Shown: piece by piece, positions 3,955-22,442 of the stretch
Layout of the letters: every line of letters begins with the position of its first letter
Position numbering within the stretch: the first letter of the stretch is position 1
Notes under the pieces: generated by a model
The model's input: the letters and a program-made list of their open reading frames with translations, nothing else
What the model was told of the DNA's origin: nothing
Database searches by the model: none
Assembly: GCA_001778495.1 (NCBI GenBank)
Contig: MFHE01000002.1
Location: 17,995 to 81,994 of the forward strand
Direction of reading: 5' to 3'
Source of the DNA: Candidatus Giovannonibacteria bacterium RIFCSPHIGHO2_01_FULL_45_24
GTDB taxonomy: Bacteria > Patescibacteriota > Minisyncoccia > UBA11713 > 2-01-FULL-45-33
DNA: 64,000 bases
Program-made: the position numbers and the translations under genes

Positions 3955-6900
3955 ATGCCGATACAAAAAAAATACTTCTCCCGTTACCGGGAGCCGCTGG
4001 CCAATCTGCCCAATTTAGCTGAAATGCAGCTGAAGTCTTTTAACTGGCTGCTCAAAACGGGGATTCGCGAGATTTTGGACGAGTTTTCGCCGATTGTGGA
4101 TTACACCGGGGAGGAATTGGTCCTGGAATTTTTGGATTATTCTTTTGACGAGCCGAAGTACGACGAAAATTACGCCAGAGTAAACAACCTGTCTTTCGAA
4201 TCTTCTTTTAGAATCCGCATCCGGCTTACCAATAAACGCACGGGAGAAAAAAAAGAGCAGGAAATTTTTCTGGCCGACATGCCGATGATGACCCCACGCG
4301 GAACTTTTTTAATAAACGGCGTTGAGCGCGTGATTGTCTCGCAGTTGGCCAGGTCTTTCGGCGCTTACTTTACTCTGGTCAATGTTTTCAAAGGCAGAAA
4401 GCTTTTCGGCGCCAAAGTCATTCCTTCGCGCGGCGCCTGGCTGGAGTTTGAAACGGAAAGCGACGGGGCGATTTACGCTAAAGTTGACCGCAAAAGAAAA
4501 ATCGCCGCTACTGCCCTTATGCGAATTTTCGGGCTGGAGAAAAATGACGAGATAATAAACGCTTTTTCAGCGGTGGACAACGGAGAAGTTTCTTTCATCA
4601 AAAAAACTCTGGAAAAAGACCCGACTAAAACCGCCGACGACTCTTACGTGGAAATTTTCAAAAGAATCCGCCAGGGTGAGCTGGCAACTCCCGACAACGC
4701 CCGCGAGCTCATAGGCACCATGTTCGGGCCGGAGAGGTATGACCTGTCCGCCGTCGGCAGATACAAGCTCGGCCAGCGTTTGCTTTCTTTGGCCGGCGTT
4801 AAGGTCAAAAACCCGCGAATTTTAAACAAGGAAGATCTGGTAGCCATACTTTCGGAGGTGATTTCTTTAAATAATAACCCATTGTCCCTGCCGGACGACA
4901 TTGATAACCTTGGCAACCGCCGCGTGCGCTCGGTTGGCGAGATGCTCCAGCAAAGATTGCGAATCGGGCTCGCGCGCATGGAGCGGACGATAAAAGACCG
5001 CATGTCCACCTCCGACCTTGCCACGATTACTCCCGCCCAGCTTTTAAACGCCCGGCCGTTCGCCGCCGTTATCTCCGAATTTTTTATGACCAACCAGCTT
5101 TCCCAATTTATGGACCAAACAAATATTCTTTCCGAGCTTGAGCACAAGCGCAGGGTTTCGGCCTTGGGCCCCGGGGGGCTCACGCGCGAGCGCTCCGGCT
5201 TTGAAGTTCGGGATGTCCACCCCTCTTATTACGGGCGGCTCTGCCCGATTATGACCCCCGAGGGGCCGAATATCGGGCTTATCAACTATCTTGCGGGATA
5301 CGCGCTGGTAAACGATTTCGGCATTTTGGAGACTCCTTACAGAAAAGTCATAAACGGCAAGGTGACGAATGAAATCAATTACCTCACGGCTTTTGAAGAA
5401 GCCCGGCATAAAATTGCCCAAGCCGGAGTCGCCATAGACACGGAAGGGAATATTTTGGACGAAGAAACAGAGGGTCGCTCCAATGGCCAGCCGGCGCTGA
5501 TAGCGAAATCGGAGATTGACTACATAGACGTTTCTCCCCAGCAAGCGTTTTCTATAGCCACTTCCTTGGTGCCGTTTTTGGAGCACGACGATTCAACCCG
5601 CGCCATGATGGGTTCAAACATGCAGCGCCAGGCCGTGCCCTGCGTGCGCCCCCAGGCGCCATTGGTCGCCACCGGCATGGAAGAAAAAGCCGCCCGGGAT
5701 TCCGGCCGGCTGATAATATCGGATATGGACGGCGCGGTAAGCGCCGTTGACGCGAAGTCTGTCACGGTGAAATTCGGCCGCAAAGAAAAAACATATGAAT
5801 TGGTGAATTTTGTCCGCTCTAACCAGTCAACAGTCATACACCAGCGCCCCTCTGTGAAGTTGGGCGACAAAATAAAAAAAGGCGACGTGCTTGCCGATAC
5901 TTCGCTTACCGACCGCGGACATTTGGCGCTAGGCCAAAATCTCCTCGTGGCTTTTCTTTCCTGGGGCGGGGCGAATTTTGAGGATGCGATTATTCTTTCC
6001 GACCGTTTGGTAAAAAATGACACCTTTACCTCTGTTTTGGCGGAGGACTACACGGTGGATGTCCGGGACACGAAGCTCGGGTCCGAGATCACTACGCACG
6101 ACATCCCCAACGTCGGCGAGGAGAAACTCAAAGATTTGGACGAAGACGGCATCATCTGCGTCGGCGCGGAAGTAAGAGCCGGCGACATACTTGTGGGGAA
6201 AATTTCCCCGAAAGGCGAATCCGACCTTACGCCCGAGGAGCGGCTTCTGCGCGCGATTTTCGGGGAAAAAGCAAGAGACGTAAAAGACACTTCTTTCCGC
6301 CTCCAGCACGGCAGGCACGGCCGCGTGGTCGGCATTAAAGTTTTCTCAAGGGAAAAAGGCGACAAATTAGAAACCGGAGTAATCAAAGAAATCCGCGTGG
6401 AGGTGGCGGAGATGCGGAAGGTTTCTCCCGGCGACAAGCTCGCCGGCCGCCATGGCAACAAAGGCGTGATTTCCCGCATTCTTCCGCAAGAAGATATGCC
6501 TTACCTCGCGGACGGCACTCCGGTTGACGTTATTTTAAATCCTTTGGGCGTCGCCTCGCGCATGAACATAGGCCAGATTTTGGAAACCCATCTGGGATGG
6601 GCGGCGGAGAAGCAGGGCTATATGGCAATAACGCCAACTCTGCTCGGAGCGACGGAGACCGAAATCAAATCGGAGCTTAAAAAAGCAGGCCTTCCCGAAG
6701 ACGGCAAGGTCCGGCTTTTTGACGGCCGCACCGGGAAAGAATTTGACCAGAAAGTCACTGTCGGAATGGTTTATTTAATGAAGCTCTCGCACATGGTAGA
6801 AGACAAGCTCCACATGCGCTCAATCGGGCCGTATTCTTTGATAACCCAGCAGCCGCTTGGAGGAAAAGCGCAGGGCGGAGGGCAAAGATTCGGCGAAATG

Positions 6901-7233
6901 GAAGTCTGGGCCTTGGAAGGATACGGCGCCGCGCACACTCTGCAGGAGATGCTGACTATAAAATCGGACGACGTTTTGGGCCGCGCGTCCGCTTACGACG
7001 CGATCGTGCGGGGCGAGCCGTTCCGCACTCCGAACGTGCCGGCATCCTTCCATGTTTTAGTGAACGAGCTTAAGGGGCTGGCGCTGGACGTTGAGCTTAG
7101 GGGGGTGAAGGAAGCGCCCGAAGATTCTGAAGAGTATGCCGAAAAAGCGCAGAAAAGCAAAGGGCGGCAAAAAGAGCGCTTTGAAGAATATATTTTAGAA
7201 GAGGAGGAAAAAACATGGAGTCGCAAAAAATAG
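3955..7233 (+). CDS. rpoB: DNA-directed RNA polymerase subunit beta
   Basis: Full-length RpoB motifs (MMTPRGTFLINGVERVIVSQL, GRHGNKGVISRI, GGQRFGEMEVWALEGYGAA). Confidence 0.98.
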   Translation: MPIQKKYFSRYREPLANLPNLAEMQLKSFNWLLKTGIREILDEFSPIVDYTGEELVLEFLDYSFDEPKYDENYARVNNLSFESSFRIRIRLTNKRTGEKKEQEIFLADMPMMTPRGTFLINGVERVIVSQLARSFGAYFTLVNVFKGRKLFGAKVIPSRGAWLEFETESDGAIYAKVDRKRKIAATALMRIFGLEKNDEIINAFSAVDNGEVSFIKKTLEKDPTKTADDSYVEIFKRIRQGELATPDNARELIGTMFGPERYDLSAVGRYKLGQRLLSLAGVKVKNPRILNKEDLVAILSEVISLNNNPLSLPDDIDNLGNRRVRSVGEMLQQRLRIGLARMERTIKDRMSTSDLATITPAQLLNARPFAAVISEFFMTNQLSQFMDQTNILSELEHKRRVSALGPGGLTRERSGFEVRDVHPSYYGRLCPIMTPEGPNIGLINYLAGYALVNDFGILETPYRKVINGKVTNEINYLTAFEEARHKIAQAGVAIDTEGNILDEETEGRSNGQPALIAKSEIDYIDVSPQQAFSIATSLVPFLEHDDSTRAMMGSNMQRQAVPCVRPQAPLVATGMEEKAARDSGRLIISDMDGAVSAVDAKSVTVKFGRKEKTYELVNFVRSNQSTVIHQRPSVKLGDKIKKGDVLADTSLTDRGHLALGQNLLVAFLSWGGANFEDAIILSDRLVKNDTFTSVLAEDYTVDVRDTKLGSEITTHDIPNVGEEKLKDLDEDGIICVGAEVRAGDILVGKISPKGESDLTPEERLLRAIFGEKARDVKDTSFRLQHGRHGRVVGIKVFSREKGDKLETGVIKEIRVEVAEMRKVSPGDKLAGRHGNKGVISRILPQEDMPYLADGTPVDVILNPLGVASRMNIGQILETHLGWAAEKQGYMAITPTLLGATETEIKSELKKAGLPEDGKVRLFDGRTGKEFDQKVTVGMVYLMKLSHMVEDKLHMRSIGPYSLITQQPLGGKAQGGGQRFGEMEVWALEGYGAAHTLQEMLTIKSDDVLGRASAYDAIVRGEPFRTPNVPASFHVLVNELKGLALDVELRGVKEAPEDSEEYAEKAQKSKGRQKERFEEYILEEEEKTWSRKK

Positions 7234-10200
7234 CAGATTTTAAATCGTTGGTTATCCGCCTCGCTCCGCGCGAGAAGGTTTTAGCATGGTCTAGGGGGGA
7301 GATTACGAAGCCGGAAACCATTAATTATAGAACGCAGCGCCCGGAAAAAGACGGCCTCTTTGACGAGCGCATCTTCGGCCCGGAAAAAGATTACGAATGC
7401 TATTGCGGTAAGTACAAGCGCGTCCGGTACAAAGGCATCATCTGCGACAAATGCGGAGTGGAGGTGACCAGGTCAATCGTCCGCAGGGAAAGAATGGGGC
7501 ACATTGAACTTGCTTCCCCAGTTTCGCACATATGGTTTTTAAGGGGAGTGCCTTCAAGAATCGGCTTGGTTTTGGATATGTCCGTGCCGGATTTGGAAAA
7601 AGTAATTTATTTCGGAGGGTACATTATCACTAAAGTTGACGAAAGGTCGCGGAAAGAAGTTTTGGCCGCGGTTGAGAAAGAGTTTAAATCCAAGTTGAAA
7701 TCCGCCGCCCCGGCCGAAGCGGAAGCGCTGAAATCCGTTTACGACACCACACTCGGCGAAATCAAGGGGCTCTGTGAGAAGGCGGTTATCTCAGAGGTGG
7801 AATATCACCGCTTCAGCTTAAAGTACGCGCATATTTTTGAGGCGGGCATCGGCTCGGAAGCATTGAGAAAACTTGCGTCCGAAATTAATTTAAATCAGCT
7901 TGTTTCCCGGCTTTCCGCGGAATCAGAGAGCGCCTCGCCTCTTCAGAAAAAAAAGATTTTGCGGAGATTGCGTCTTATGCAGTCCATGTTGAGGTCCGGC
8001 GTCCGGCCGGAATGGATGTTTCTTACTGTGATACCAGTAATCCCGCCTGCTTTGCGCCCGATGGTGCAGTTGGAGGGCGGCAGGCATGCGACTTCTGACA
8101 TCAACGACCTTTACCGCCGCGTGATAAACAGAAATAATCGCCTAAAAAAACTTTTGGAGATAAAAGCGCCGGAAGTGATTGTCCGCAACGAAAAAAGAAT
8201 GCTTCAGGAATCTGTTGACGCTTTGATTGACAATTCCATCAAGCGCACGCAGGGTCCCGCGGCCACCTCGCAAGCCCAAAAAAGGCCGTTGCGCTCTTTG
8301 GCGGACATGTTGAAGGGCAAGCAGGGAAGGTTCAGGCAGAATCTTTTGGGCAAGCGCGTGGACTACTCCGGCAGATCGGTCATAGTGGTAGGGCCGGAGT
8401 TAAAGCTTCACCAATGCGGCCTTCCGAAACACATGGCGCTTGAGCTTTTCAGGCCGTTTGTCATACACGATTTGATAAACCGCGGCTTGGCGCACACGAT
8501 AAAAGGCGCGGGGCGGCTCATTGACGATCTCAAAGCGGAGATATGGGAGAGTTTGGAAAACGTCATTAAAGACAAATACGTGCTTTTAAACCGCGCGCCG
8601 ACCCTGCACCGCTTGGGCATACAGGCGTTCCAGCCAATACTTATTGAGGGCAGCGCCATACAGCTCCATCCTTTGGTTTGCGAAGCTTTTAACGCGGATT
8701 TTGACGGCGACCAGATGGCCGTGCACGTTCCACTGACGGATGAAGCGCAAAAAGAGGCGCGCGACATCATAGCATCCGTCAGAAATCTGCTCAAGCCCGG
8801 CAACGGCGAACCGGTGGCGACTCCGAGGCAGGACATAGTAATGGGCATCGCGTATCTCACCAGAATCAGGCCGGGCGCCAAGGGCGAGGGCAAATATTTC
8901 GCTTCGCCAAACGAGGCAATCTTGGCGCATGATTTTGAATGGGTGGACATCCACGCGAAAATCTTTGTTAAGATTACCAAAACGCCGAAATACCAGAGCG
9001 CCGGCAAGGAGATACTGGAAACTTCCGTCGGGAGATTGCTTTTCAACAGCGTCCTGCCAAGGGATTTTGCGTTTTTGAACCAGGAGATGAAAAAGAAAGA
9101 TTTGGACCGGCTGGTTTCTAATCTGATACAAAGATACGGAATTGACGAGACGCCCGGCATTTTAGACCGCATCAAATCCTTGGGCTTTAAGCACTCCACG
9201 GAATCCGGCATCAGCTGGGGGATGGATGACATACAAGTGCCTCAAGAAAAGCAGGCGTTTATTAAAAGAGCAAAAGAAGAAGCGCGCGTTATAGAAAAAC
9301 AATACGACCAGGGGCTGCTCACCGACCGCGAGCGCTACGAAAAAATAATAGAGGTTTGGACAAACGTTAAAACGGAAGTGGACAAGCTCGCCCAGGGCGC
9401 TATGGATCCTTTTGGCCCCGTTCAATACATGGTTTCTTCCGGTGCGAGAGGCAACTGGGCGCAGATAAACCAGCTGGCTTCAATGAAGGGCTTGGTGGTT
9501 AATCCTTCCGGGCGCACAATTGAGCTCCCAATACTCGCGAGCTTTAAAGAGGGGCTGGCGGTTTTGGAGTATTTCATATCCACCCACGCTTCCAGAAAAG
9601 GCACTGCAGATACGGCGCTTAAAACCGCAGCGGCGGGATATCTAACGCGCCGCTTGGTGGATGTTGTGCAGGACATCATAATAAGCGAGCCGGATTGCAA
9701 AGACGAAGTTGGTTTTGAGGTTAGAAGGGTTGATTACGAGCGGCTTGGCAAAGGATTTGCGACGCGCGTGTTCGGCAGGGTTTTGGCGGCAGATATCGCC
9801 GACCCGGAGTCCAAAAAGCCGCTATTTAAGCGCGGGCATCTGCTTACCATGGCCGACGCCGAGAAAATCGGCTCTTTGGAAATTCCGAGCGTGCTTTTGC
9901 GGTCTCCAATTTCGTGCCGAGCCGTGCGCGGCATCTGCCAGCTTTGCTACGGATACGATCTTGGCTCCAACGCCCCGGTTAAGCTTGGGGAAGCCGTAGG
10001 GATAGTCGCCGCGCAGGCCATCGGTGAGCCGGGCACGCAGCTGACAATGAGGACTTTCCATGTGGGAGGCATAGCCGGAGCGGCGGACATCACTATGGGT
10101 CTTCCGAGAGTGGAGGAAATCTTTGAGCTCCGCATGCCCCGGTCGCTGGCGATTATTTCCAACGTGTCCGGCACGGCGCTTTCGGTTGCGGACGCGGGAG

Positions 10201-10946: not shown

Positions 10947-13139
10947 ATGGCCAGAAAGAAACGGAATAACGGGAAAAGCGGAGCGGGGATTGGGGCTTGG
11001 CATCAGAATCTCCGGCCGGAGACGAAGCATTCGCTTTGGGCTGTCTTGTCGTTTGCGGTTTCGGCCATTTTGGCCATGGCTTATTTCGGCGGGGCGGGGA
11101 TGATAGGCAACGTCGTCCGCCGGTCGCTTTTTTTTGTTTTCGGCAAAGGGTTTTTCCTCGCGCCTTTGGCGTTTTTTTTGTCCGGTATTTCTTTTTTGCT
11201 CGCTTTGGGCAGCCATTTTGTAGCGACCACGGCCGTCGGCGGGACTTTGTTTTTAATAAGCTCGCTGGGGCTTGCGGACATCGTCTTCGGCGAATACACC
11301 GGAGGATACGTCGGTTTTTTGGTTTCTTACCCGTTTCTCCGGCTTTTTGATTTTTGGGCTTCGCTTCTTATTTTCTCCGCATTTCTTCTAGCGTCTTTTG
11401 TAATTGCCCTCAATGTTTCTTTAAAACCGAAAAGAAAAGAAAGTGTAGAAAAAGATGAAAAAAGGGCGGAAGAAAAAATTTTCACGCCGCTGCCGGCGCC
11501 TCTCGCGTACACCTTGCCTCCCGCGAAAATCGAAGAAAAAAAGGATGAAGAAGAAAATACTTTCTCCGCCTTTGGCGGAAAAAAATCTTATAAACAGCAG
11601 CGTTTGGACATAGGCAAGCCGTTTGAATACAATGCTCCGCCTCCGGATCTTTTGGAAGACGATAAGGGAACGCCCTCGTCCGGCGACATAAAAGCAAATG
11701 CAAACATCATAAAAAGGACATTGCAGAATTTCGGCATTGACGTGGAAATGTCGGAAGTGAACATCGGCCCCTCGGTTACGCAGTATACCTTAAAGCCGGC
11801 GGAGGGAGTAAAACTCTCCCGCATCACTGCCCTTCATAACGATTTGGCGCTGGCTTTGGCTGCGCATCCTTTGAGGATTGAGGCGCCGATTCCCGGAAAA
11901 TCTCTGGTCGGCATAGAAGTCCCTAACAGGTCAATCGCTCTCGTGGGGCTCCGCAGTCTGCTTTCTTTGGATGAATTTAAAAACGCGGCCCCTCTGACTT
12001 TTTCTTTAGGCCGCGATGTTTCCGGGCGGGCGATATTTGCCGACGTTGCCAGAATGCCGCACCTTTTAATCGCCGGCGCGACGGGTTCGGGCAAGTCAAT
12101 TGCTATTCACACTTTAATTGTCAGCATGCTTTATAAAAATTCTCCGGAGTTCCTCCGTTTTTTGATGGTTGACCCAAAAAGGGTTGAGCTCACGATTTAC
12201 AATTCCGCTCCTCACCTTCTCGCCCCGGTTATAACCGACGCGAAAAAGGCCATTATTTCACTGCGCTGGGCGGCGAGAGAGATGGAAAGAAGATATGAAC
12301 GACTTTCGGAAACCGGCGCGCGCGACATAAATTCTTATAACGCAGAGATGGTTAGAGAGAAAAATCGCGAGGAGATTTTGCCGAACATCGTAATCATTAT
12401 AGACGAGTTGGCTGACCTTATGGCCACATATCCGCGCGAGATGGAAGCATCAATCGTGCGCTTGGCGCAGATGTCCAGGGCGGTGGGGATTCATTTGGTT
12501 GTCTCTACCCAGCGCCCGTCGGTGGAGGTAATTACAGGGCTTATAAAAGCGAACATTACCTTCAGAATCGCCTTACAGGTTGCTTCCGGCGTGGATTCGC
12601 GGACAATTTTGGACATGTCAGGAGCGGAGAAGCTTTTGGGCAACGGAGACATGCTTTATCTGGCCGGCGATACTTCAAAACCAAAAAGAATCCAGGGAGC
12701 GTTTATTTCGGAGCGCGAAGTGAAAAAAGTGGCGAGTTATGTCGCCGAAGCTGGAGATAAATTTGAGGCGGAGAAGATTAACTTGGATATAAAATTGCCT
12801 GAAGTTGGAAATGGGAAGTGGGATGTTGGAGATGAGACGGAAATAGACGACGAGCTTTACGAGAAGGCGAAAAAACTGGTGGTTGAGGCGCAAAAAGCGT
12901 CGGCGTCCTACCTCCAGCGCCGGCTTCGCGTGGGCTACGCCCGCGCCGCGCGCCTTTTGGATATGCTGGAGGAGCGCGGCGTCATCGGCCCCGGCGATGG
13001 CGCCAAGCCGAGAGAGGTTTTGATTAAGCCGGAAAGTTTTGGCGGGAAAGATTTTGCGGATGAGGAAGAAGAAATTGAAGAAATAAAATCGGAACCGAAA
13101 AAGGATAGCGACGTGCCATACACTAACTTTGATTTTTGA
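10947..13139 (+). CDS. ftsK: DNA translocase FtsK/SpoIIIE
   Basis: N-terminal TM segments, Walker A GATGSGKS, DELADL Walker B, C-terminal gamma domain (SYLQRRLRVGYARAARLLDMLE). Confidence 0.95.
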   Translation: MARKKRNNGKSGAGIGAWHQNLRPETKHSLWAVLSFAVSAILAMAYFGGAGMIGNVVRRSLFFVFGKGFFLAPLAFFLSGISFLLALGSHFVATTAVGGTLFLISSLGLADIVFGEYTGGYVGFLVSYPFLRLFDFWASLLIFSAFLLASFVIALNVSLKPKRKESVEKDEKRAEEKIFTPLPAPLAYTLPPAKIEEKKDEEENTFSAFGGKKSYKQQRLDIGKPFEYNAPPPDLLEDDKGTPSSGDIKANANIIKRTLQNFGIDVEMSEVNIGPSVTQYTLKPAEGVKLSRITALHNDLALALAAHPLRIEAPIPGKSLVGIEVPNRSIALVGLRSLLSLDEFKNAAPLTFSLGRDVSGRAIFADVARMPHLLIAGATGSGKSIAIHTLIVSMLYKNSPEFLRFLMVDPKRVELTIYNSAPHLLAPVITDAKKAIISLRWAAREMERRYERLSETGARDINSYNAEMVREKNREEILPNIVIIIDELADLMATYPREMEASIVRLAQMSRAVGIHLVVSTQRPSVEVITGLIKANITFRIALQVASGVDSRTILDMSGAEKLLGNGDMLYLAGDTSKPKRIQGAFISEREVKKVASYVAEAGDKFEAEKINLDIKLPEVGNGKWDVGDETEIDDELYEKAKKLVVEAQKASASYLQRRLRVGYARAARLLDMLEERGVIGPGDGAKPREVLIKPESFGGKDFADEEEEIEEIKSEPKKDSDVPYTNFDF

Positions 13140-17509: not shown

Positions 17510-17580
17510 TTATAAATGTTATTATATAAGTAATCTTTTGTCAAGTATCTTAAAATGAGGCTAAATCGTAGAATGTGGTA

Positions 17581-18816
17581 ATGCACAAGATTGCGCAAAA
17601 GAGTTGGAGCGAGGGGATTTTTAGGGCGTATGATATTCGGGGAAGATATCCGGAGGAGATTAATGAGGATTCGGCGTATAAAATCGCGCGAGCGTTCGCG
17701 CGGTATTTAAAGCTTAGCAACATGGAAGGAAGAATTCTGAAAGTAGTGATTAGCGCCGACGCGCGCGAATCGTCGCCAGCACTTAAAGAAGCGTTTTTGG
17801 AAGGGCTTTCGGATGAGGGCGCGGAGATTATTGACGCGGGGATTACGACGACGCCGATGCATTATTTTATCGTAAATAAAATGGATGCCGATGGCGGGGC
17901 GATGATTACAGCTTCGCACAATCCACCGGAGTTTAACGGAATCAAACTCTCAAAAAAAGGCGCGGTGTCAATCGGGTCGGGCGCGGGGTTGGAAGAGATC
18001 AAAAATGACGCCATAAGGGGCATTTTTCAGAATTCGGATGGCAAAACCAAGGGTAAAGTAACCAAAAAAGATTTTTTTGGCGAATATATTGAGTTTCTAA
18101 ACGGGTGTTTTCCGCATTTGAAATCTTATATCGCAAAACTTGTTGCGGGGAAGAAAGTCCCCGGTCTGTCTTTTGATTTTGACGGCGACAGGGTTTTGTT
18201 CCGGGACGAAAGCGGGAAGGCGGTTCCAGGCGACATTATTACCGCGCTTCTGGCGCAGAAATACGCCGAGCCGGGCGAAAAAATAGTTTGCGATTTGCGT
18301 TCAAGCCGCGCAGTCAAAGAGGAAGTAGAGGCGAAGGGAGGCGTTGCCATAGAAAGCAGAGTAGGGCATTCGTTTATTAAAGCGCTGATGAAAAAAGAGA
18401 ACGCGGTTTTCGGCGGCGAGCTCTCCGGACATTATTATTTCCGTGATTTTTTTTATTCAGATTCTGGGATTTTTGCCGCTTTGGCAGTATTGGATTTAAT
18501 AAAGACCGCTCAAAAATCTTTAAGCGAGCTTGTAAGGCCGCTGATGCGCCACTTTAAGTCCGAAGAAATAAATTTTGAGGTAAAAGATAAAGAAAAAATA
18601 CTAGACAAAGTCGCGGCATACTTTACGGACCTGCCTGCCGGCAGGCAGGCGCCAAAAATCTCTTATCTGGACGGAATTAAAGTTGAATACCCTGACTGGT
18701 GGTTTAATTTGCGCCCGTCCAATACAGAAGACTTTTTGCGTTTAAATATTGAGGCGTCCACTCCGGAGCTTCTGGAAGAAAAAAGAAGAATTCTCTCTGA
18801 TTTAATAATGAAGTAG
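17581..18816 (+). CDS. phosphomannomutase/phosphoglucomutase family protein
   Basis: Active-site ITASHNPPEFNGIK and metal site FDFDGDR. TAGAAT (17569-17574) is 7 nt before ATG 17581. The track GTG at 17575 is the alternative start. Confidence 0.85.
   Translation: MHKIAQKSWSEGIFRAYDIRGRYPEEINEDSAYKIARAFARYLKLSNMEGRILKVVISADARESSPALKEAFLEGLSDEGAEIIDAGITTTPMHYFIVNKMDADGGAMITASHNPPEFNGIKLSKKGAVSIGSGAGLEEIKNDAIRGIFQNSDGKTKGKVTKKDFFGEYIEFLNGCFPHLKSYIAKLVAGKKVPGLSFDFDGDRVLFRDESGKAVPGDIITALLAQKYAEPGEKIVCDLRSSRAVKEEVEAKGGVAIESRVGHSFIKALMKKENAVFGGELSGHYYFRDFFYSDSGIFAALAVLDLIKTAQKSLSELVRPLMRHFKSEEINFEVKDKEKILDKVAAYFTDLPAGRQAPKISYLDGIKVEYPDWWFNLRPSNTEDFLRLNIEASTPELLEEKRRILSDLIMK
18630..18649. repeat. 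perfect 20-bp palindrome, in frame in the phosphomutase gene
   Basis: CCTGCCTGCC|GGCAGGCAGG encodes LPAGRQA. Confidence 0.8.
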
Positions 18817-19797
18817 CCCAACCCTTTGGCGCACCTCGTGCATTTTTAGCTCGGCCGCGTCTTTTGCCGCATCCGCCCCGTTTTTTAGGATTTTAAGAAC
18901 ACTTTCTTTGCTCTTGGCCAGCGCTTTGTATTTTTTTTGAACGGGGGAGAGGGTTTTAACCAGCGCATCCGCCAAATCCGATTTAAATTCAGAGTAAGTC
19001 TTCCCTGCGTATTTTTTTTCAAGCTCTGAAATAGATATGGCCGCCGTATTGCTGTAAATAGCAAGCAAATTGGAAATGGCCGGCTTCATTTGGGGATTGA
19101 ATCTTATTTCTCTGCCGGAATCCGTCACGGCGATTTTAATTTTGCGCCGGATTTCGGCCTCCCCGTCCAAAAGCTCAATCCGGCTGGCCGCCGCGGCCGA
19201 CTTGGACATTTTTTTTGTTGGATCGTCCAAGCCCATAATCCTCGCGCCTTCTTTTTGGATGAGCGCTTTTGGCTCTTTGAATGTTTGGCCGAATTTTGCG
19301 TTAAACTTTCTTGCCAGCGTTCTGGCCAGTTCTACATGCTGAAGCTGGTCTTCCCCGACAGGCACCGCGTCCGGCTGGTAAAGTAAGATATCCGCTGCCA
19401 TCAAAGTCGGGTAATTTAAAAGCCCGGCCAAGACATTTTGCCCCGCCTTTTTTTCTTTAAATTGAGTCATTCTTTCAAGCTCGCCGAGCGGGGTTATTGT
19501 ATTTAAAATCCAGCCGAGTTCGGCGTGCTGGGGGACATGCGATTGTACAAAAATCGTAGTTTTTTCGGGGTCAAGCCCGCATGCGAGGTAAGTATAAACC
19601 GCGTCCAGCGCCTGCGCCTCCAGTTTTTTGGGGTCTTGGGGGACAGTTATGGCGTGGAGATCAGCCACAAAAACAAACATTTTATATTTGTTTTGCAGTT
19701 CAATAAATTGTTTTATCGCGCCGATATAATTTCCGATGTGTAGATTCCCGGACGCCTGTATCCCGCTTACCGCAACCTGTTTTCTTGCTTCTGGCAT
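18802..19797 (-). CDS. trpS: tryptophan--tRNA ligase
   Basis: GNLHIGNYIGA (HIGH) and KMSKS motifs. The 3' end overlaps the convergent phosphomutase gene by 15 nt. Confidence 0.95.
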   Translation of the reverse strand: MPEARKQVAVSGIQASGNLHIGNYIGAIKQFIELQNKYKMFVFVADLHAITVPQDPKKLEAQALDAVYTYLACGLDPEKTTIFVQSHVPQHAELGWILNTITPLGELERMTQFKEKKAGQNVLAGLLNYPTLMAADILLYQPDAVPVGEDQLQHVELARTLARKFNAKFGQTFKEPKALIQKEGARIMGLDDPTKKMSKSAAAASRIELLDGEAEIRRKIKIAVTDSGREIRFNPQMKPAISNLLAIYSNTAAISISELEKKYAGKTYSEFKSDLADALVKTLSPVQKKYKALAKSKESVLKILKNGADAAKDAAELKMHEVRQRVGLLHY

Positions 19798-19799
19798 TT

Positions 19800-19837
19800 T
19801 TTAATTATACCTCAATAATCACCGGCAAAACCATGGG
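19800..19837. repeat. 38-bp direct repeat, copy A
   Basis: TTTAATTATACCTCAATAATCAC(C/A)GGCAAAACCATGGG, 37/38 identical to 20520-20557, exactly 720 bp away. Confidence 0.95.
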
Positions 19838-20516
19838 GCTCTTTCATGATTAATTCCACAAAAAACATTGCCCAGAGCGCGGTAAAGCCAAGAAACATTA
19901 TGCCGAAACTGGCAGCCAGCAATATTGTGTTAGTGGTAAGAATCATGGACCATCCACCTATTCCACCAAGAAGAAAAGTTATGGAGAATAAGGTTTTTTT
20001 CACAGCCGTCTTTGCGTTCTTGGCCGGCATAGTAAAAAGAAAATATCCGGAGACCAAAGCCGCTGACATCCCAAGCGCGGCCACTACTATGTTAAAAGGA
20101 TACGACACGTTCCAGTGTATAATTCCATAAACATCAACGCTTGGCGCAGGGATGTGTACTGTGTGAACTGCGCCTAAAATCAATATAAACAAAGGCATGG
20201 CTATTTTGAAAAATTTAGTAAGCGCTATTTTATTCCACGATGTTAGCGTAACGAGTAATGGATTGTATATCGCGACAAAAAAAGCCAGCGTGCCTAATAT
20301 ATAAAATACGCCGTTTGCCCTTACCGTCTCGGCATTTATGAATATGGGTATTCCGTAAAAGCCGAGAGACAACGACTCTATCATGCCAAGCCGGAAGAAC
20401 ATTTTAGTATACTCGTTCCCAGTTTTTTTATACGCGCTCCGAAACCACAACCCGTACGAGAAAGTCGCCGCCATAGAATAAAAATACACCGCCGACGAAA
20501 CAGGAAAAGGATTCAT
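19812..20516 (-). CDS. polytopic membrane protein, unknown function
   Basis: About 7 hydrophobic segments. Bracketed by the 38-bp direct repeats. Confidence 0.6.
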   Translation of the reverse strand: MNPFPVSSAVYFYSMAATFSYGLWFRSAYKKTGNEYTKMFFRLGMIESLSLGFYGIPIFINAETVRANGVFYILGTLAFFVAIYNPLLVTLTSWNKIALTKFFKIAMPLFILILGAVHTVHIPAPSVDVYGIIHWNVSYPFNIVVAALGMSAALVSGYFLFTMPAKNAKTAVKKTLFSITFLLGGIGGWSMILTTNTILLAASFGIMFLGFTALWAMFFVELIMKEPHGFAGDY

Positions 20517-20519
20517 TGC

Positions 20520-20557
20520 TTTAATTATACCTCAATAATCACAGGCAAAACCATGGG
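20520..20557. repeat. 38-bp direct repeat, copy B (covers the RNase J 3' end)
   Basis: See 19800-19837. Confidence 0.95.
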
Positions 20558-22309
20558 CCGCCTTTTAGTTTTTTGGAAAAGGTAGGAGCCCAGCCGCTCG
20601 CGGACGTTGTCGCGGACGTGGGTATAATTTATGGGATGCATTTTATTCGTGGATTCTTCTACCACGCGCTTTACGAGATGCCGCGTGTGCGCAAGAAGCT
20701 CGTGGGATTCTTTGAGATAAATAAACCCTCGCGAGATTATGTCCGGTGAACCTTTTACCTGCCCGGTTTTTGAATCAACCGCCGCAATCACCACGAAAAT
20801 GCCGTCCTGTGAGAGCATCCGGCGGTCGCGCAGAACCACCTCTTGCACGTCTCCGATGCCGAGGCCGTCCACCATAACGTAAAAAGCGTCAACGGTTTTG
20901 TCGGTGATGACCACGCTGTTTTTGCCGAACTCCGCGACTTGGCCGTTGTCCATCAAAATGATACGTTCTTTGCCGATGCCTATTGGTTTCAAATTCTGAA
21001 TGTTAGCTGCGCGTTTGAAATAGAAGCCGTGGATGGGAATAATAAATTTCGGCTTGCAGATTTTAGCGACTATCGTCAGGTCGTCGCCGGGGGCGTGGCC
21101 GGATGAATGGATGTCCAGGTCGTCATTTGTGATGACAATCGCTCCTTGGCGGGTAAAGTTGTCTTTGAGGGTCTGTACGGCGCGCTCATTGCCGGGGATT
21201 ACCGAGGAAGAAAACATAATCGTGTCGCCCGGCTTAGCATGGATGTGTTTATGCTCGCGGTTCGCGATTCGCATGAGCCCGGAGTTTTCCTGCCCCTGCG
21301 CGCCGGTTGAGAGAATAAGTATTTCATTGTCTTTGTGTCTGCCTAACTCCTCAACTTGGATGAGCGTACCCGGTTTGTATTTTATGTAGCCGAGCTGTTT
21401 GGCGATTTCAAGATTGTCTTTCATGCTCCGCCCGTTGATTACGACTTTGCGCCCGATTTTTTCCGCGATTTTCACGATTTCGGCCATGCGGGTAATCATG
21501 GATGAAAATGTTGAGAGAATAATACGGCCCTTGGCTTCCAAAAAAGTTTTTTCAAGATTGGCCTCAACCAATTTTTCCGAAACAGAATGCCCCTCTATGT
21601 CCGCGTTGGTGCTGTCTAAAAACAGCGTATGGACGCCGAGCTTGGACAGCCGCTCAAATTCATGGATATTTTGAACCGTGTCTTCTTGGTCGTAATCAAG
21701 CCGGAAGTCGGCGAAATGCACCATAATGCCCGCGGGAGTATGGAACGCCACTCCGGTTGTGTCCGGCACGGTGTGGCTTACGCCGAAAAACTCGGCGGTC
21801 AAATGCTCGGAGAGCTTAACTTTGTCGCGGTTTTTTATTTCTACAAAGCGCATTTTCGGAACGTTCGGCATTTCGCTTAAGCGTTTTTGGAGGATTTCTC
21901 TGATGAGCCGCGTGCCGTAGATCGGCGGATTTCCGAGCCGCTCCAACACGTAGTGGACTGCGCCGAAATGGTCGTAGTGCCCGTGGGTTATGAGAAGCGC
22001 CCTGATGTTTTTCTTTTTTTTCTCAAGATAGCTCGTGTTAGGTATAATCCAATCCACGCCCGGGGTTTCTTCCTCGGGAAACTGTATGCCCATGTCAATG
22101 ATTACAATTTCATCATTGTATTCAAAAAACGAGCAGTTGCGACCGACTTCCTCCAGCCCGCCCAAGGGGACATAGTAAAGCGTGTCGCGCTTTAGAGCCG
22201 CGGCGTGGCCGCGAACTTCGCGGCCGGTCAGCGAGCCCTCTTTATAAAATTTGCGGTCGGAAGTTACATTTAATGTTCTGATTCTTGTTCTTGGTTGTCT
22301 TGGCGGCAT
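20525..22309 (-). CDS. rnj: ribonuclease J
   Basis: Metallo-beta-lactamase LITHGHYDHFGAV and beta-CASP/RMMBL layout. About 590 aa. Confidence 0.9.
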   Translation of the reverse strand: MPPRQPRTRIRTLNVTSDRKFYKEGSLTGREVRGHAAALKRDTLYYVPLGGLEEVGRNCSFFEYNDEIVIIDMGIQFPEEETPGVDWIIPNTSYLEKKKKNIRALLITHGHYDHFGAVHYVLERLGNPPIYGTRLIREILQKRLSEMPNVPKMRFVEIKNRDKVKLSEHLTAEFFGVSHTVPDTTGVAFHTPAGIMVHFADFRLDYDQEDTVQNIHEFERLSKLGVHTLFLDSTNADIEGHSVSEKLVEANLEKTFLEAKGRIILSTFSSMITRMAEIVKIAEKIGRKVVINGRSMKDNLEIAKQLGYIKYKPGTLIQVEELGRHKDNEILILSTGAQGQENSGLMRIANREHKHIHAKPGDTIMFSSSVIPGNERAVQTLKDNFTRQGAIVITNDDLDIHSSGHAPGDDLTIVAKICKPKFIIPIHGFYFKRAANIQNLKPIGIGKERIILMDNGQVAEFGKNSVVITDKTVDAFYVMVDGLGIGDVQEVVLRDRRMLSQDGIFVVIAAVDSKTGQVKGSPDIISRGFIYLKESHELLAHTRHLVKRVVEESTNKMHPINYTHVRDNVRERLGSYLFQKTKRRPMVLPVIIEV

Positions 22310-22358: not shown

Positions 22359-22442
22359 TGGGCGAGAGAGGATTTGAACCTCCACGGGATTACTCCCACA
22401 CGGCCCTGAACCGTGTGCGTCTGCCAATTTCGCCACTCGCCC
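22359..22442 (-). tRNA. tRNA-Leu (anticodon CAG)
   Basis: Manual fold. Acceptor GGGCGAG/CTCGCCC. Anticodon arm CACGG-TTCAGGG-CCGTG. Long variable arm. T-loop TTCAAAT. No encoded CCA. Confidence 0.9.

Follow-up and report, generated by a model that had tools for sequence, protein, structure and literature searches.

A repeated rnj gene end between the RNase J and tryptophanyl-tRNA synthetase genes of a Candidatus Giovannonibacteria genome

The repeat and the genes that it joins

We analysed the junction between rnj, the gene of RNase J, and trpS, the gene of tryptophanyl-tRNA synthetase, in a 64-kb stretch of contig MFHE01000002.1 from Candidatus Giovannonibacteria bacterium RIFCSPHIGHO2_01_FULL_45_24 (positions 17,995 to 81,994; this whole stretch is called the window, and its own numbering is used below). 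This uncultivated groundwater bacterium is a member of Candidatus Giovannonibacteria (Parcubacteria; candidate phyla radiation or CPR), and the contig comes from the Rifle aquifer. An open reading frame (ORF) for a predicted membrane protein with seven transmembrane (TM) segments, here called mem, lies between the two genes, and all three are encoded on the minus strand. The last 30 coding nucleotides of rnj, together with 8 nucleotides of the junction, occur twice (Table 1). The resulting direct repeat reads TTTAATTATACCTCAATAATCAC(C/A)GGCAAAACCATGGG on the plus strand. Its copies are identical at 37 of 38 positions, lie 720 bp apart from start to start, and can be stretched to 45 nucleotides at 91% identity. 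A sequence search thus bore out the pair of copies described in an earlier note on this DNA.

Table 1. Features at the rnj-trpS junction, in window coordinates
Feature	Position	Strand	Remarks
Repeat copy B	20520..20557, lower-identity extension to 20564	-	True rnj 3' end: last 10 codons and stop (P-MVLPVIIEV-stop), with downstream junction
Repeat copy A	19800..19837, lower-identity extension to 19844	-	Probable displaced copy of the rnj tail plus junction; immediately precedes trpS
rnj (RNase J, 594 aa)	20525..22309	-	Conserved upstream anchor gene; C-terminus ...RRPMVLPVIIEV, then stop
mem (234-aa ORF, predicted 7-TM)	19812..20516	-	Between rnj and trpS; ends ...KEPHGFAGDY, then stop
trpS (tryptophanyl-tRNA synthetase, 331 aa)	18802..19797	-	Ancestrally the gene right behind rnj
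TATAAT, putative -10 box of a leaderless mem transcript	20524..20529	-	Overlaps the rnj stop (GTA TAA T), 7 nt before the mem ATG (20516)
TATAAT in copy A, putative -10 box of a leaderless trpS transcript	19804..19809	-	6 nt before the trpS ATG (19797)
Relic mini-ORF, ATG GTT TTG CCG GTG ATT ATT GAG GTA TAA (MVLPVIIEV-stop)	19805..19834	-	Intact in copy A; overlaps the mem tail in another frame

We compared the 1001-bp region from 19700 to 20700 across 11 loci that stem from independent ENA, JGI, NCBI and Logan assemblies; 10 of them showed 100% identity, and the eleventh had a single mismatch. This result indicates that the repeat is real and rules out an assembly artefact. When up to 3 mismatches were allowed, the 38-nt repeat was found at exactly two sites in the window, each half of it was unique to the same two sites, and 100 shuffles gave no match. 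Chance and a common window-wide motif are thereby ruled out as its source; the earlier note had named a common genome-wide motif as an outcome against its reading.

The two copies differ in what they encode. The Pfam RNase_J_C profile matched to its last position at the last rnj residue, which identifies copy B as the authentic rnj end, and this tail is conserved in all 80 relatives described below. Copy A, read one frame off, forms the last 7 residues and the stop codon of mem (..KEP-HGFAGDY-stop). Both assignments agree with the earlier note. On the coding strand each copy terminates in GAGGTATAATTAAA, which is followed by AA-ATG at trpS and by GCA-ATG at mem. Copy A has the clade-typical CCG codon and copy B has CCT.

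The rnj-trpS junction in relatives

A scan for RNase J with one genome per species gave 80 loci, labelled below by L-numbers. The closest of them belong to Candidatus Giovannonibacteria, with 83-91% amino-acid identity. In 61 of the 80 Parcubacteria species loci trpS follows rnj on the same strand, with a gap of less than 60 nt in 20 of these. The earlier note had predicted relatives in which trpS directly follows rnj with one copy of the repeat, and such relatives exist. In the Giovannonibacteria loci L009, L012, L017 and L086 the rnj stop codon is separated from the trpS ATG by 7 nt, and each of them carries a single GAGGTATAAT-N6-ATG; L008 has a near-direct junction with a spacer of 21-24 nt. 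Alignments of the direct-junction relatives, L009 included, begin exactly at the left edge of copy A (window position ~19839). By sliding-window identity, rnj is nearest to L010, L017 and L009 along its full length, and trpS is nearest to L009 over most of its length (72-87% nucleotide identity). L009, itself a direct-junction genome, is the relative most consistently close across rnj, trpS and pgm. The direct junctions in Giovannonibacteria, including that of L009, support an insertion in this lineage, and in the ancestral state trpS lay directly behind rnj after 7-10 nt.

The two sides of the junction give discordant relationships. For RNase J the most similar loci are L010 and L017 (91% amino-acid identity), but their TrpS is among the least similar (64-68%). 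L099 and L011 have TrpS identities of 88-89% over the partial sequences available and a more distant RNase J. The discordance in L010 and L017 shows that recombination breakpoints lie at this junction.

Mem homologues fill the rnj-trpS gap in L014/L091, L090 and L099, two mem paralogs do so in L016, and in L015 a mem homologue is one of several genes, the others being a DUF885 gene and unknown genes. The gap of L010 contains unknown ORFs, and those of L011 and L013 measure 339 and 415 bp. The order rnj-mem-trpS without a repeat is seen in L014/L091 and L099, and the two paralogs of L016 are accompanied by no significant repeat. The same three genes lacking the repeat were an outcome that the earlier note had named as speaking against a junction duplication, and formally they occur.

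The AlphaFold model of the mem protein has 7 helices (predicted local distance difference test score, pLDDT, of 85), with the last, repeat-encoded residues disordered. No Pfam match above cut-off and no NCBIfam, PADLOC or PDB sequence match was obtained, and a fold search in the PDB gave similarity only to generic 7-TM bundles (E of at least 0.01; root-mean-square deviation of 6-8 Å). It belongs to a small, uncharacterised family (67 representatives, taken at 50% identity, in a set of 1.8 billion proteins), in which the window mem is an outlier, being 32-42% identical to all other members. The conserved core of mem stops at ...MKEP, just ahead of the repeat. Some members of the family reside at loci unrelated to rnj-trpS. 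One of these, P0008, is at L123 4001-4687 (GCA_900218215.1), downstream of a tRNA and divergent from Peptidase_S51, NUDIX and RmuC genes, with no rnj tail nearby; its location indicates no strict link between the family and the rnj-trpS gap. Within the gap, mem genes are long-standing residents that diverge fast, and not a one-off foreign acquisition.

The repeat-less loci suggest that the order of events could also have been the reverse. Mem would already have been in the gap, and the native mem-trpS junction, with the mem tail and its stop codon included, would later have been overwritten by an rnj tail plus trpS from a mem-less conspecific allele. The exchange would have been homologous within trpS and illegitimate where it met the mem tail, and copy A would represent a promoter patch and not a footprint of mem acquisition. 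The exact coincidence of the end of the conserved mem core with the start of the repeat, with the native variable tail missing, fits such a course, as does the origin of both copies from the same lineage. However, with a mem-less donor, two homologous crossovers that simply remove mem would be the easier outcome, and the direct junction is found in L009, the closest consistent relative, as well as in several further members of the clade. As the window mem is an outlier, no close mem-bearing relative is known either. We consider this reverse course improbable.

We looked in every locus for further copies of the rnj tail that it carries, by DNA and by peptide comparison. A metagenome scan with the mem alignment led to a genome (L088/L089) with three mem paralogs in a row. 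In L089 (3189-6140; metagenome contig Ga0209211_10006450; the same organism as L088 and L093-L098) the order is rnj-mem1-copy-mem2-X-copy-mem3-trpS, where X is an unknown ORF of 192/193 amino acids on the opposite strand. Its two extra tail copies, of 46-53 nt, stand directly before mem2 and mem3 and match the last 30 nt of the resident tail at 28-29 positions, while the mem paralogs are mutually only 35-49% identical. Near-identical tails next to diverged paralogs imply that the events are recent relative to the paralogs, or that the copies were homogenised or selected. A second case is L074 (6792-8446; Giovannonibacteria RIFCSPHIGHO2_12_FULL_44_22), where the gap is filled by a 72-aa ORF read from the opposite strand, an ORF resembling an antitoxin together with a ParE toxin, and an NTPase_I-T gene. 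One tail relic, at 8391, matches at 29 of 30 positions and lies 17 nt before trpS; another, at 7763 upstream of the NTPase gene, is diverged and has foreign codons (TKRRP-MVLPAIIEV). L015 has an 11-nt junction copy before memA, and more distant rnj-tail remnants are present in L020 and L084. Candidate decayed remnants before memB of L016 and before trpS of L010, L011, L013, L016 and L099 were not significant, and a 13-nt rnj-tail match inside the mem 3' end of L014 (p ~0.01) was lost on correction for 17 tests.

Taken together, the locus is a recombination hot spot rather than the site of a single clean event. The earlier note had read the repeat as the clean footprint of single-gene acquisition by junction duplication. 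The insertion is supported by the direct-junction relatives, and the event was neither single nor clean, as remnants recur in L074, L089 and L015 and mem resides in the gap without a repeat elsewhere.

Arrays with a tail copy before successive genes, as in L089 and L074, recall cassette stacking. In such a model a circle with mem and a copy of the rnj tail would enter by a single crossover over 38-45 bp of homology, and the region downstream of rnj would serve as an integron-like stacking platform. The crossover would be either RecA-mediated (Campbell type) or catalysed by an unidentified site-specific recombinase that uses the rnj tail as att. The direct repeats flank the insert exactly, the rnj 3' end is regenerated, and the copies are near-identical while the cargo genes are deeply diverged, all of which a cassette would explain. 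Nevertheless, no integrase or recombinase was found among Pfam-annotated neighbours within ~6 kb on each side, and mem is the only ORF in the insert. The repeat boundaries relative to the rnj stop vary between events (left, -26 to ~-50; right, 0 to +8), with no shared motif evident just upstream of the extra copies. There is no hairpin or inverted repeat at the end of the window insert, which folds no better than shuffles, and no empty site was seen among 12 contigs with identical TrpS. Two scans of viral contigs gave only chance GC-rich matches or nothing, and a phage or att origin was rejected for want of a counterpart. A cassette thus seems an unlikely source of the repeat.

A short direct repeat flanking a discrete insert could also be a target-site duplication made by a transposase, or the fill-in of a staggered break into which a 682-bp fragment was ligated. 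Transposon target duplications are usually 2-15 bp long, and 38 bp is far longer. The insert has no transposase domain and no terminal inverted repeats; it would start 3 nt before the mem ATG and end before the mem stop, an odd fragment; and the remnants in relatives vary in length and are in some cases foreign in sequence. This explanation is barely credible.

Divergence among the copies was informative. In 8 copy pairs, 23 nucleotide differences are synonymous and 9 non-synonymous, against 24% synonymous expected if random (p = 2e-8). This bias indicates that the copies diverged largely under the RNase J frame, as working rnj ends of the same or another lineage. It can be read in another way, namely that a functional mini-ORF of 9 codons (M/V-[VI]LPV[IV]IE[VI]-stop) or its surrounding RNA keeps the copies in place, for example as a short upstream ORF at whose stop codon ribosomes or RNA polymerase become coupled to the gene that follows. 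All extra copies do keep an intact ORF initiated by ATG or GTG, with mostly synonymous differences, and four distant lineages share a diverged GTG-start form with an invariant CCGACYT[GA]CCCC...GGGTG pairing. Yet the synonymous bias is equally expected of former rnj ends, many insert-bearing relatives have no copy, and the mini-ORF of the window is buried inside mem. A structured RNA was rejected: the window copies have no stable or conserved fold and fold no better than shuffles (z = -0.6, +0.3), and no Rfam family was matched at the related loci scanned (L015, L020 and L084). A selected mini-ORF is, in our judgement, very unlikely to be the reason for the copies.

The GTG-type element measures 65-80 nt and is found in four distant Parcubacteria, at L015 3516-3586, L020 (Harrisonbacteria) 6767-6845, L084 6642-6706 and L074 7179-7251. 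Its layout is CCGACYT[GA]CCCC, then 12-28 nt, then a GGGTG that opens a 9-codon copy of the rnj tail; in L074 the relic is decayed (~7215-7247). Pairing is possible between its YTGCCCC and GGGGTG segments and would sequester the GTG. A search with a covariance model built on the element recovered its 4 training copies and, beyond these, only weak matches to true rnj ends, to which the model aligns the element over its whole length. The element looks like a shared, diverged rnj-tail relic.

As for the neighbourhood of the locus, a tRNA-Leu(CAG) gene lies ~50 nt upstream of rnj (window 22359-22442, minus strand), and Rfam hits place a tRNA ahead of rnj in L015, L020 and L084 as well. On its other side, trpS is convergent with a phosphoglucomutase-like gene on the plus strand (17575-18816), and their 3' ends overlap by 15 nt (window 18802-18816). 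The recA and ssb genes are located within 6 kb of the locus.

A putative -10 box in front of the start codons

We asked which part of the repeat could serve the genes behind it. Among 63 long ORFs of the window, 10 have TAnnAT exactly 6 nt before their first ATG, compared with 0 of 263 internal ATGs, and 4 more have it at 7 nt, compared with 2 of the 263. Many of these sites read TGnTAnnAT. ATGs with TAnnAT at 6-7 nt include those at 10947, 16638 (minus strand), 17581, 26315 (minus strand), 33102, 40823, 52021 and 59184. Shine-Dalgarno-like motifs are not enriched at the gene starts of the window (13% vs. 8%). The TATAAT of the repeat is also present in relatives with a direct junction, where it overlaps the stop codon of rnj 6 nt before trpS, and at least 12 of 15 Giovannonibacteria loci have TAnnAT 6-7 nt before trpS whatever precedes it; relatives with other inserts have a different TAnnAT there (TAGCAT, TAACAT, TACAAT, TAAAAT or TAGAAT, again at 6-7 nt).

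The functional part of the repeat is therefore most likely the TATAAT, as the -10 box of a leaderless mRNA, and not a Shine-Dalgarno site, and the positional signature in the window suggests that this Giovannonibacteria genome commonly expresses its genes through leaderless transcripts. The earlier note had proposed that mem and trpS inherit a shared GAGG/TATAAT initiation signal. That both downstream genes inherit a start-proximal signal holds, while the GAGG is not supported as a ribosome-binding site, given the lack of enrichment, and a -10 box is preferred.

When L008 (6480-6520) is aligned with L017 (3325-3342), a 24-nt insertion is seen between the rnj stop and trpS in L008. With it, a new -10-like box, TGGTAGCAT, comes to lie 6 nt ahead of the trpS start, and similar boxes, TGnTAGCAT or TAACAT, precede trpS in L010, L011 and L016. 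The L008 insertion looks like an alternative way of keeping a -10 box before trpS.

Promoter activity is something that we infer, and several observations limit the case for it. A generic sigma-70 scan for -35/-10 pairs does not call the repeat copies, which have no good -35, so that a canonical promoter was rejected and the -10 spacing signature is the only ground for the promoter idea. No terminator-like site was called between rnj, mem and trpS, and read-through from rnj is also possible for this reason. The L074 remnants lack TATAAT, and a promoter role is thus not general; relics would be by-products first, and promoters only where their sequence allows. A full-text literature search found no paper describing leaderless gene starts in Patescibacteria.

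Origin of the repeat and comparison with known systems

What the sequences show is the anatomy of the locus, the direct junction as ancestral state, the recurrence of tail remnants here, their synonymous-biased divergence and the -10 signature across the window; the mechanism and direction of the event we infer. On balance, we think it probable that the repeat arose at a hot spot through illegitimate recombination anchored on rnj, an event of the C-terminal displacement type that would count as homology-facilitated illegitimate recombination (HFIR). The ancestral start signal of trpS, a TATAAT 6 nt before its ATG, would have been embedded in the last rnj codons and stop (GAG GTA TAA T). Incoming rnj-mem DNA from the same or a very close lineage would have paired homologously with rnj, and its far end would have been joined illegitimately at a short GC-rich microhomology (GCCC/CCCATGG), ~30 nt before the recipient rnj stop. 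The donor rnj end would have become copy B, and the recipient tail, copy A, would have stayed with trpS, both being pushed downstream. The rnj-proximal copy would then complete RNase J and drive mem, and the distal relic copy would still drive trpS while supplying mem with a 7-residue out-of-frame tail and a stop codon. An event should survive only if it leaves RNase J with an intact C-terminus and trpS with a -10 box in front of it, a filter that would favour short junction duplications. The repeats would make the insertion reversible by recombination between the copies.

Several features of a displacement array are present. The anchor rnj stands before a variable gap in the 61 of 80 loci noted above; a 3' remnant of the anchor lies directly upstream of the displaced gene (trpS in the window, mem2 and mem3 in L089, the NTPase gene and trpS in L074, memA in L015); and the remnants diverged under the coding constraint of the anchor or are foreign (copy 2 of L074). 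A putative microhomology at the joint would lie in AAAGAGCCCC/ATGG vs. AAGGCGGCCC/ATGG (..GAGCCCC/ATGG vs. ..GCGGCCC/ATGG). The CCG codon of copy A, set against CCT in copy B, is consistent with copy A being the recipient tail, if weakly so.

Other observations count against rnj-anchored recombination. No empty-site allele was found among the 12 contigs read with identical TrpS, and all 6 distinct places shown carry mem. An empty site or excision, in which rnj-specific sequence runs straight into trpS, would read ...AAAAGGCGGCCCATGGTTTTGCC[T/G]GTGATTATTGAGGTATAATTAAAAAATGCCAGAAGC, and a circle or tandem copy, in which the mem 3' end is connected via one repeat to the mem 5' end, would read ...ATGAAAGAGCCCCATGG...TATAATTAAAGCAATGAATCC. 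No donor tract was detected in rnj by sliding-window identity, since the nearest relative is unchanged up to the stop codon and stays L010/L009/L017; a conspecific donor would escape this test. Both copies share the lineage-specific synonymous states GTT TTG, which implies that the donor was conspecific or that the event was intragenomic. The mem donor is unsampled, its best homologue being 42% identical. Left boundaries cluster in the last 26-50 nt of rnj, which a purely random joint does not predict without added selection or deletion bias. Experimentally characterised HFIR usually deletes recipient DNA and does not duplicate it. Finally, natural competence is documented for Saccharibacteria, another Patescibacteria group (PMC10633639), and in Giovannonibacteria it would have to be assumed.

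A more far-reaching version of rnj-anchored recombination would treat the last 9 rnj codons and the stop-overlapping TATAAT as a portable adaptor for expression and recombination. Small genes would be stacked, exchanged and excised downstream of rnj without a dedicated integrase, gene-plus-tail units would be moved by RecA-type recombination over 30-50 bp, and the mini-ORF and its GTG form would be under selection. We regard this extension as doubtful.

The genomes of CPR/Patescibacteria are tiny, and little is understood of the ways in which these bacteria acquire new genes and express them. The locus offers a concrete, repeatedly used entry point for genes behind a housekeeping RNase, with a readable history of successive insertions, and promoters may sit in the last codons of the preceding gene in this genome. 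If so, gene insertion at such junctions would require either a junction duplication or a new -10 box, a constraint that lends itself to tests against the gene order of streamlined genomes and their horizontal gene transfer. The locus is also a warning for annotation, because short gene-end relics can lend C-terminal tails and stop codons to neighbouring ORFs.

Promoters of leaderless mRNAs, with a -10 box a few nucleotides before the start codon, are well known in Actinobacteria, Deinococcus-Thermus and archaea. The window resembles them in that TAnnAT stands exactly 6-7 nt ahead of many of its start codons, those of both genes behind the repeat among them, and in the lack of Shine-Dalgarno enrichment. 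It differs in the place of the putative -10 box, which overlaps the stop of the gene before it, and for Parcubacteria such promoters are predicted ones.

Integration of phages, integrative and conjugative elements and integron cassettes at gene 3' ends likewise leaves flanking direct repeats, one of which restores the 3' end of the target, and the arrays in relatives resemble cassette stacking. By contrast, the present insert is a single gene, with no recombinase, attC-like hairpin or fixed crossover core. On the features tested, the phenomenon behaves as an anchored displacement array and not as a transposon target duplication or an integrase/integron cassette.

HFIR is known from natural transformation (PMC5361080, with reference there to de Vries & Wackernagel 2002; Prudhomme et al. 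2002; Meier & Wackernagel 2003). Likenesses to it are the one-sided homologous anchor and a joint at a short GC-rich microhomology, here possibly GCCC/CCCATGG at the left edge of copy A. The differences are that no donor tract is visible in rnj and that the outcome is a short duplication and not the usual deletion.

C-terminal displacement, or orphan-module, arrays are known from Rhs, contact-dependent inhibition (CDI) and type VI secretion system (T6SS) effector-immunity loci and are attributed to HFIR (Kirchberger et al. 2017, PMC5361080, which refers to Jackson et al. 2009 on rhs and also to Koskiniemi et al. 2014). As in those arrays, a conserved upstream anchor provides homology, incoming DNA brings a new 3' end with one or more downstream genes, the old 3' end and its downstream genes are pushed distally, and repeated events build arrays with anchor remnants without an integrase. 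Unlike them, the junction described here has as its anchor a housekeeping ribonuclease and not a polymorphic toxin. The displaced piece is only 26-50 nt long and encodes the same peptide, so that no functional variation of the anchor results, and the cargo consists of 7-TM proteins, a ParE module, an NTPase and unknowns instead of toxin tips and immunity genes. In the window, moreover, the remnant doubles as the putative -10 box of the next gene. What is new relative to known displacement systems is thus the following: 1) a housekeeping ribonuclease as anchor; 2) same-peptide relics of 26-50 nt; 3) membrane-protein and miscellaneous cargo; and 4) a relic that acts as a putative leaderless promoter.

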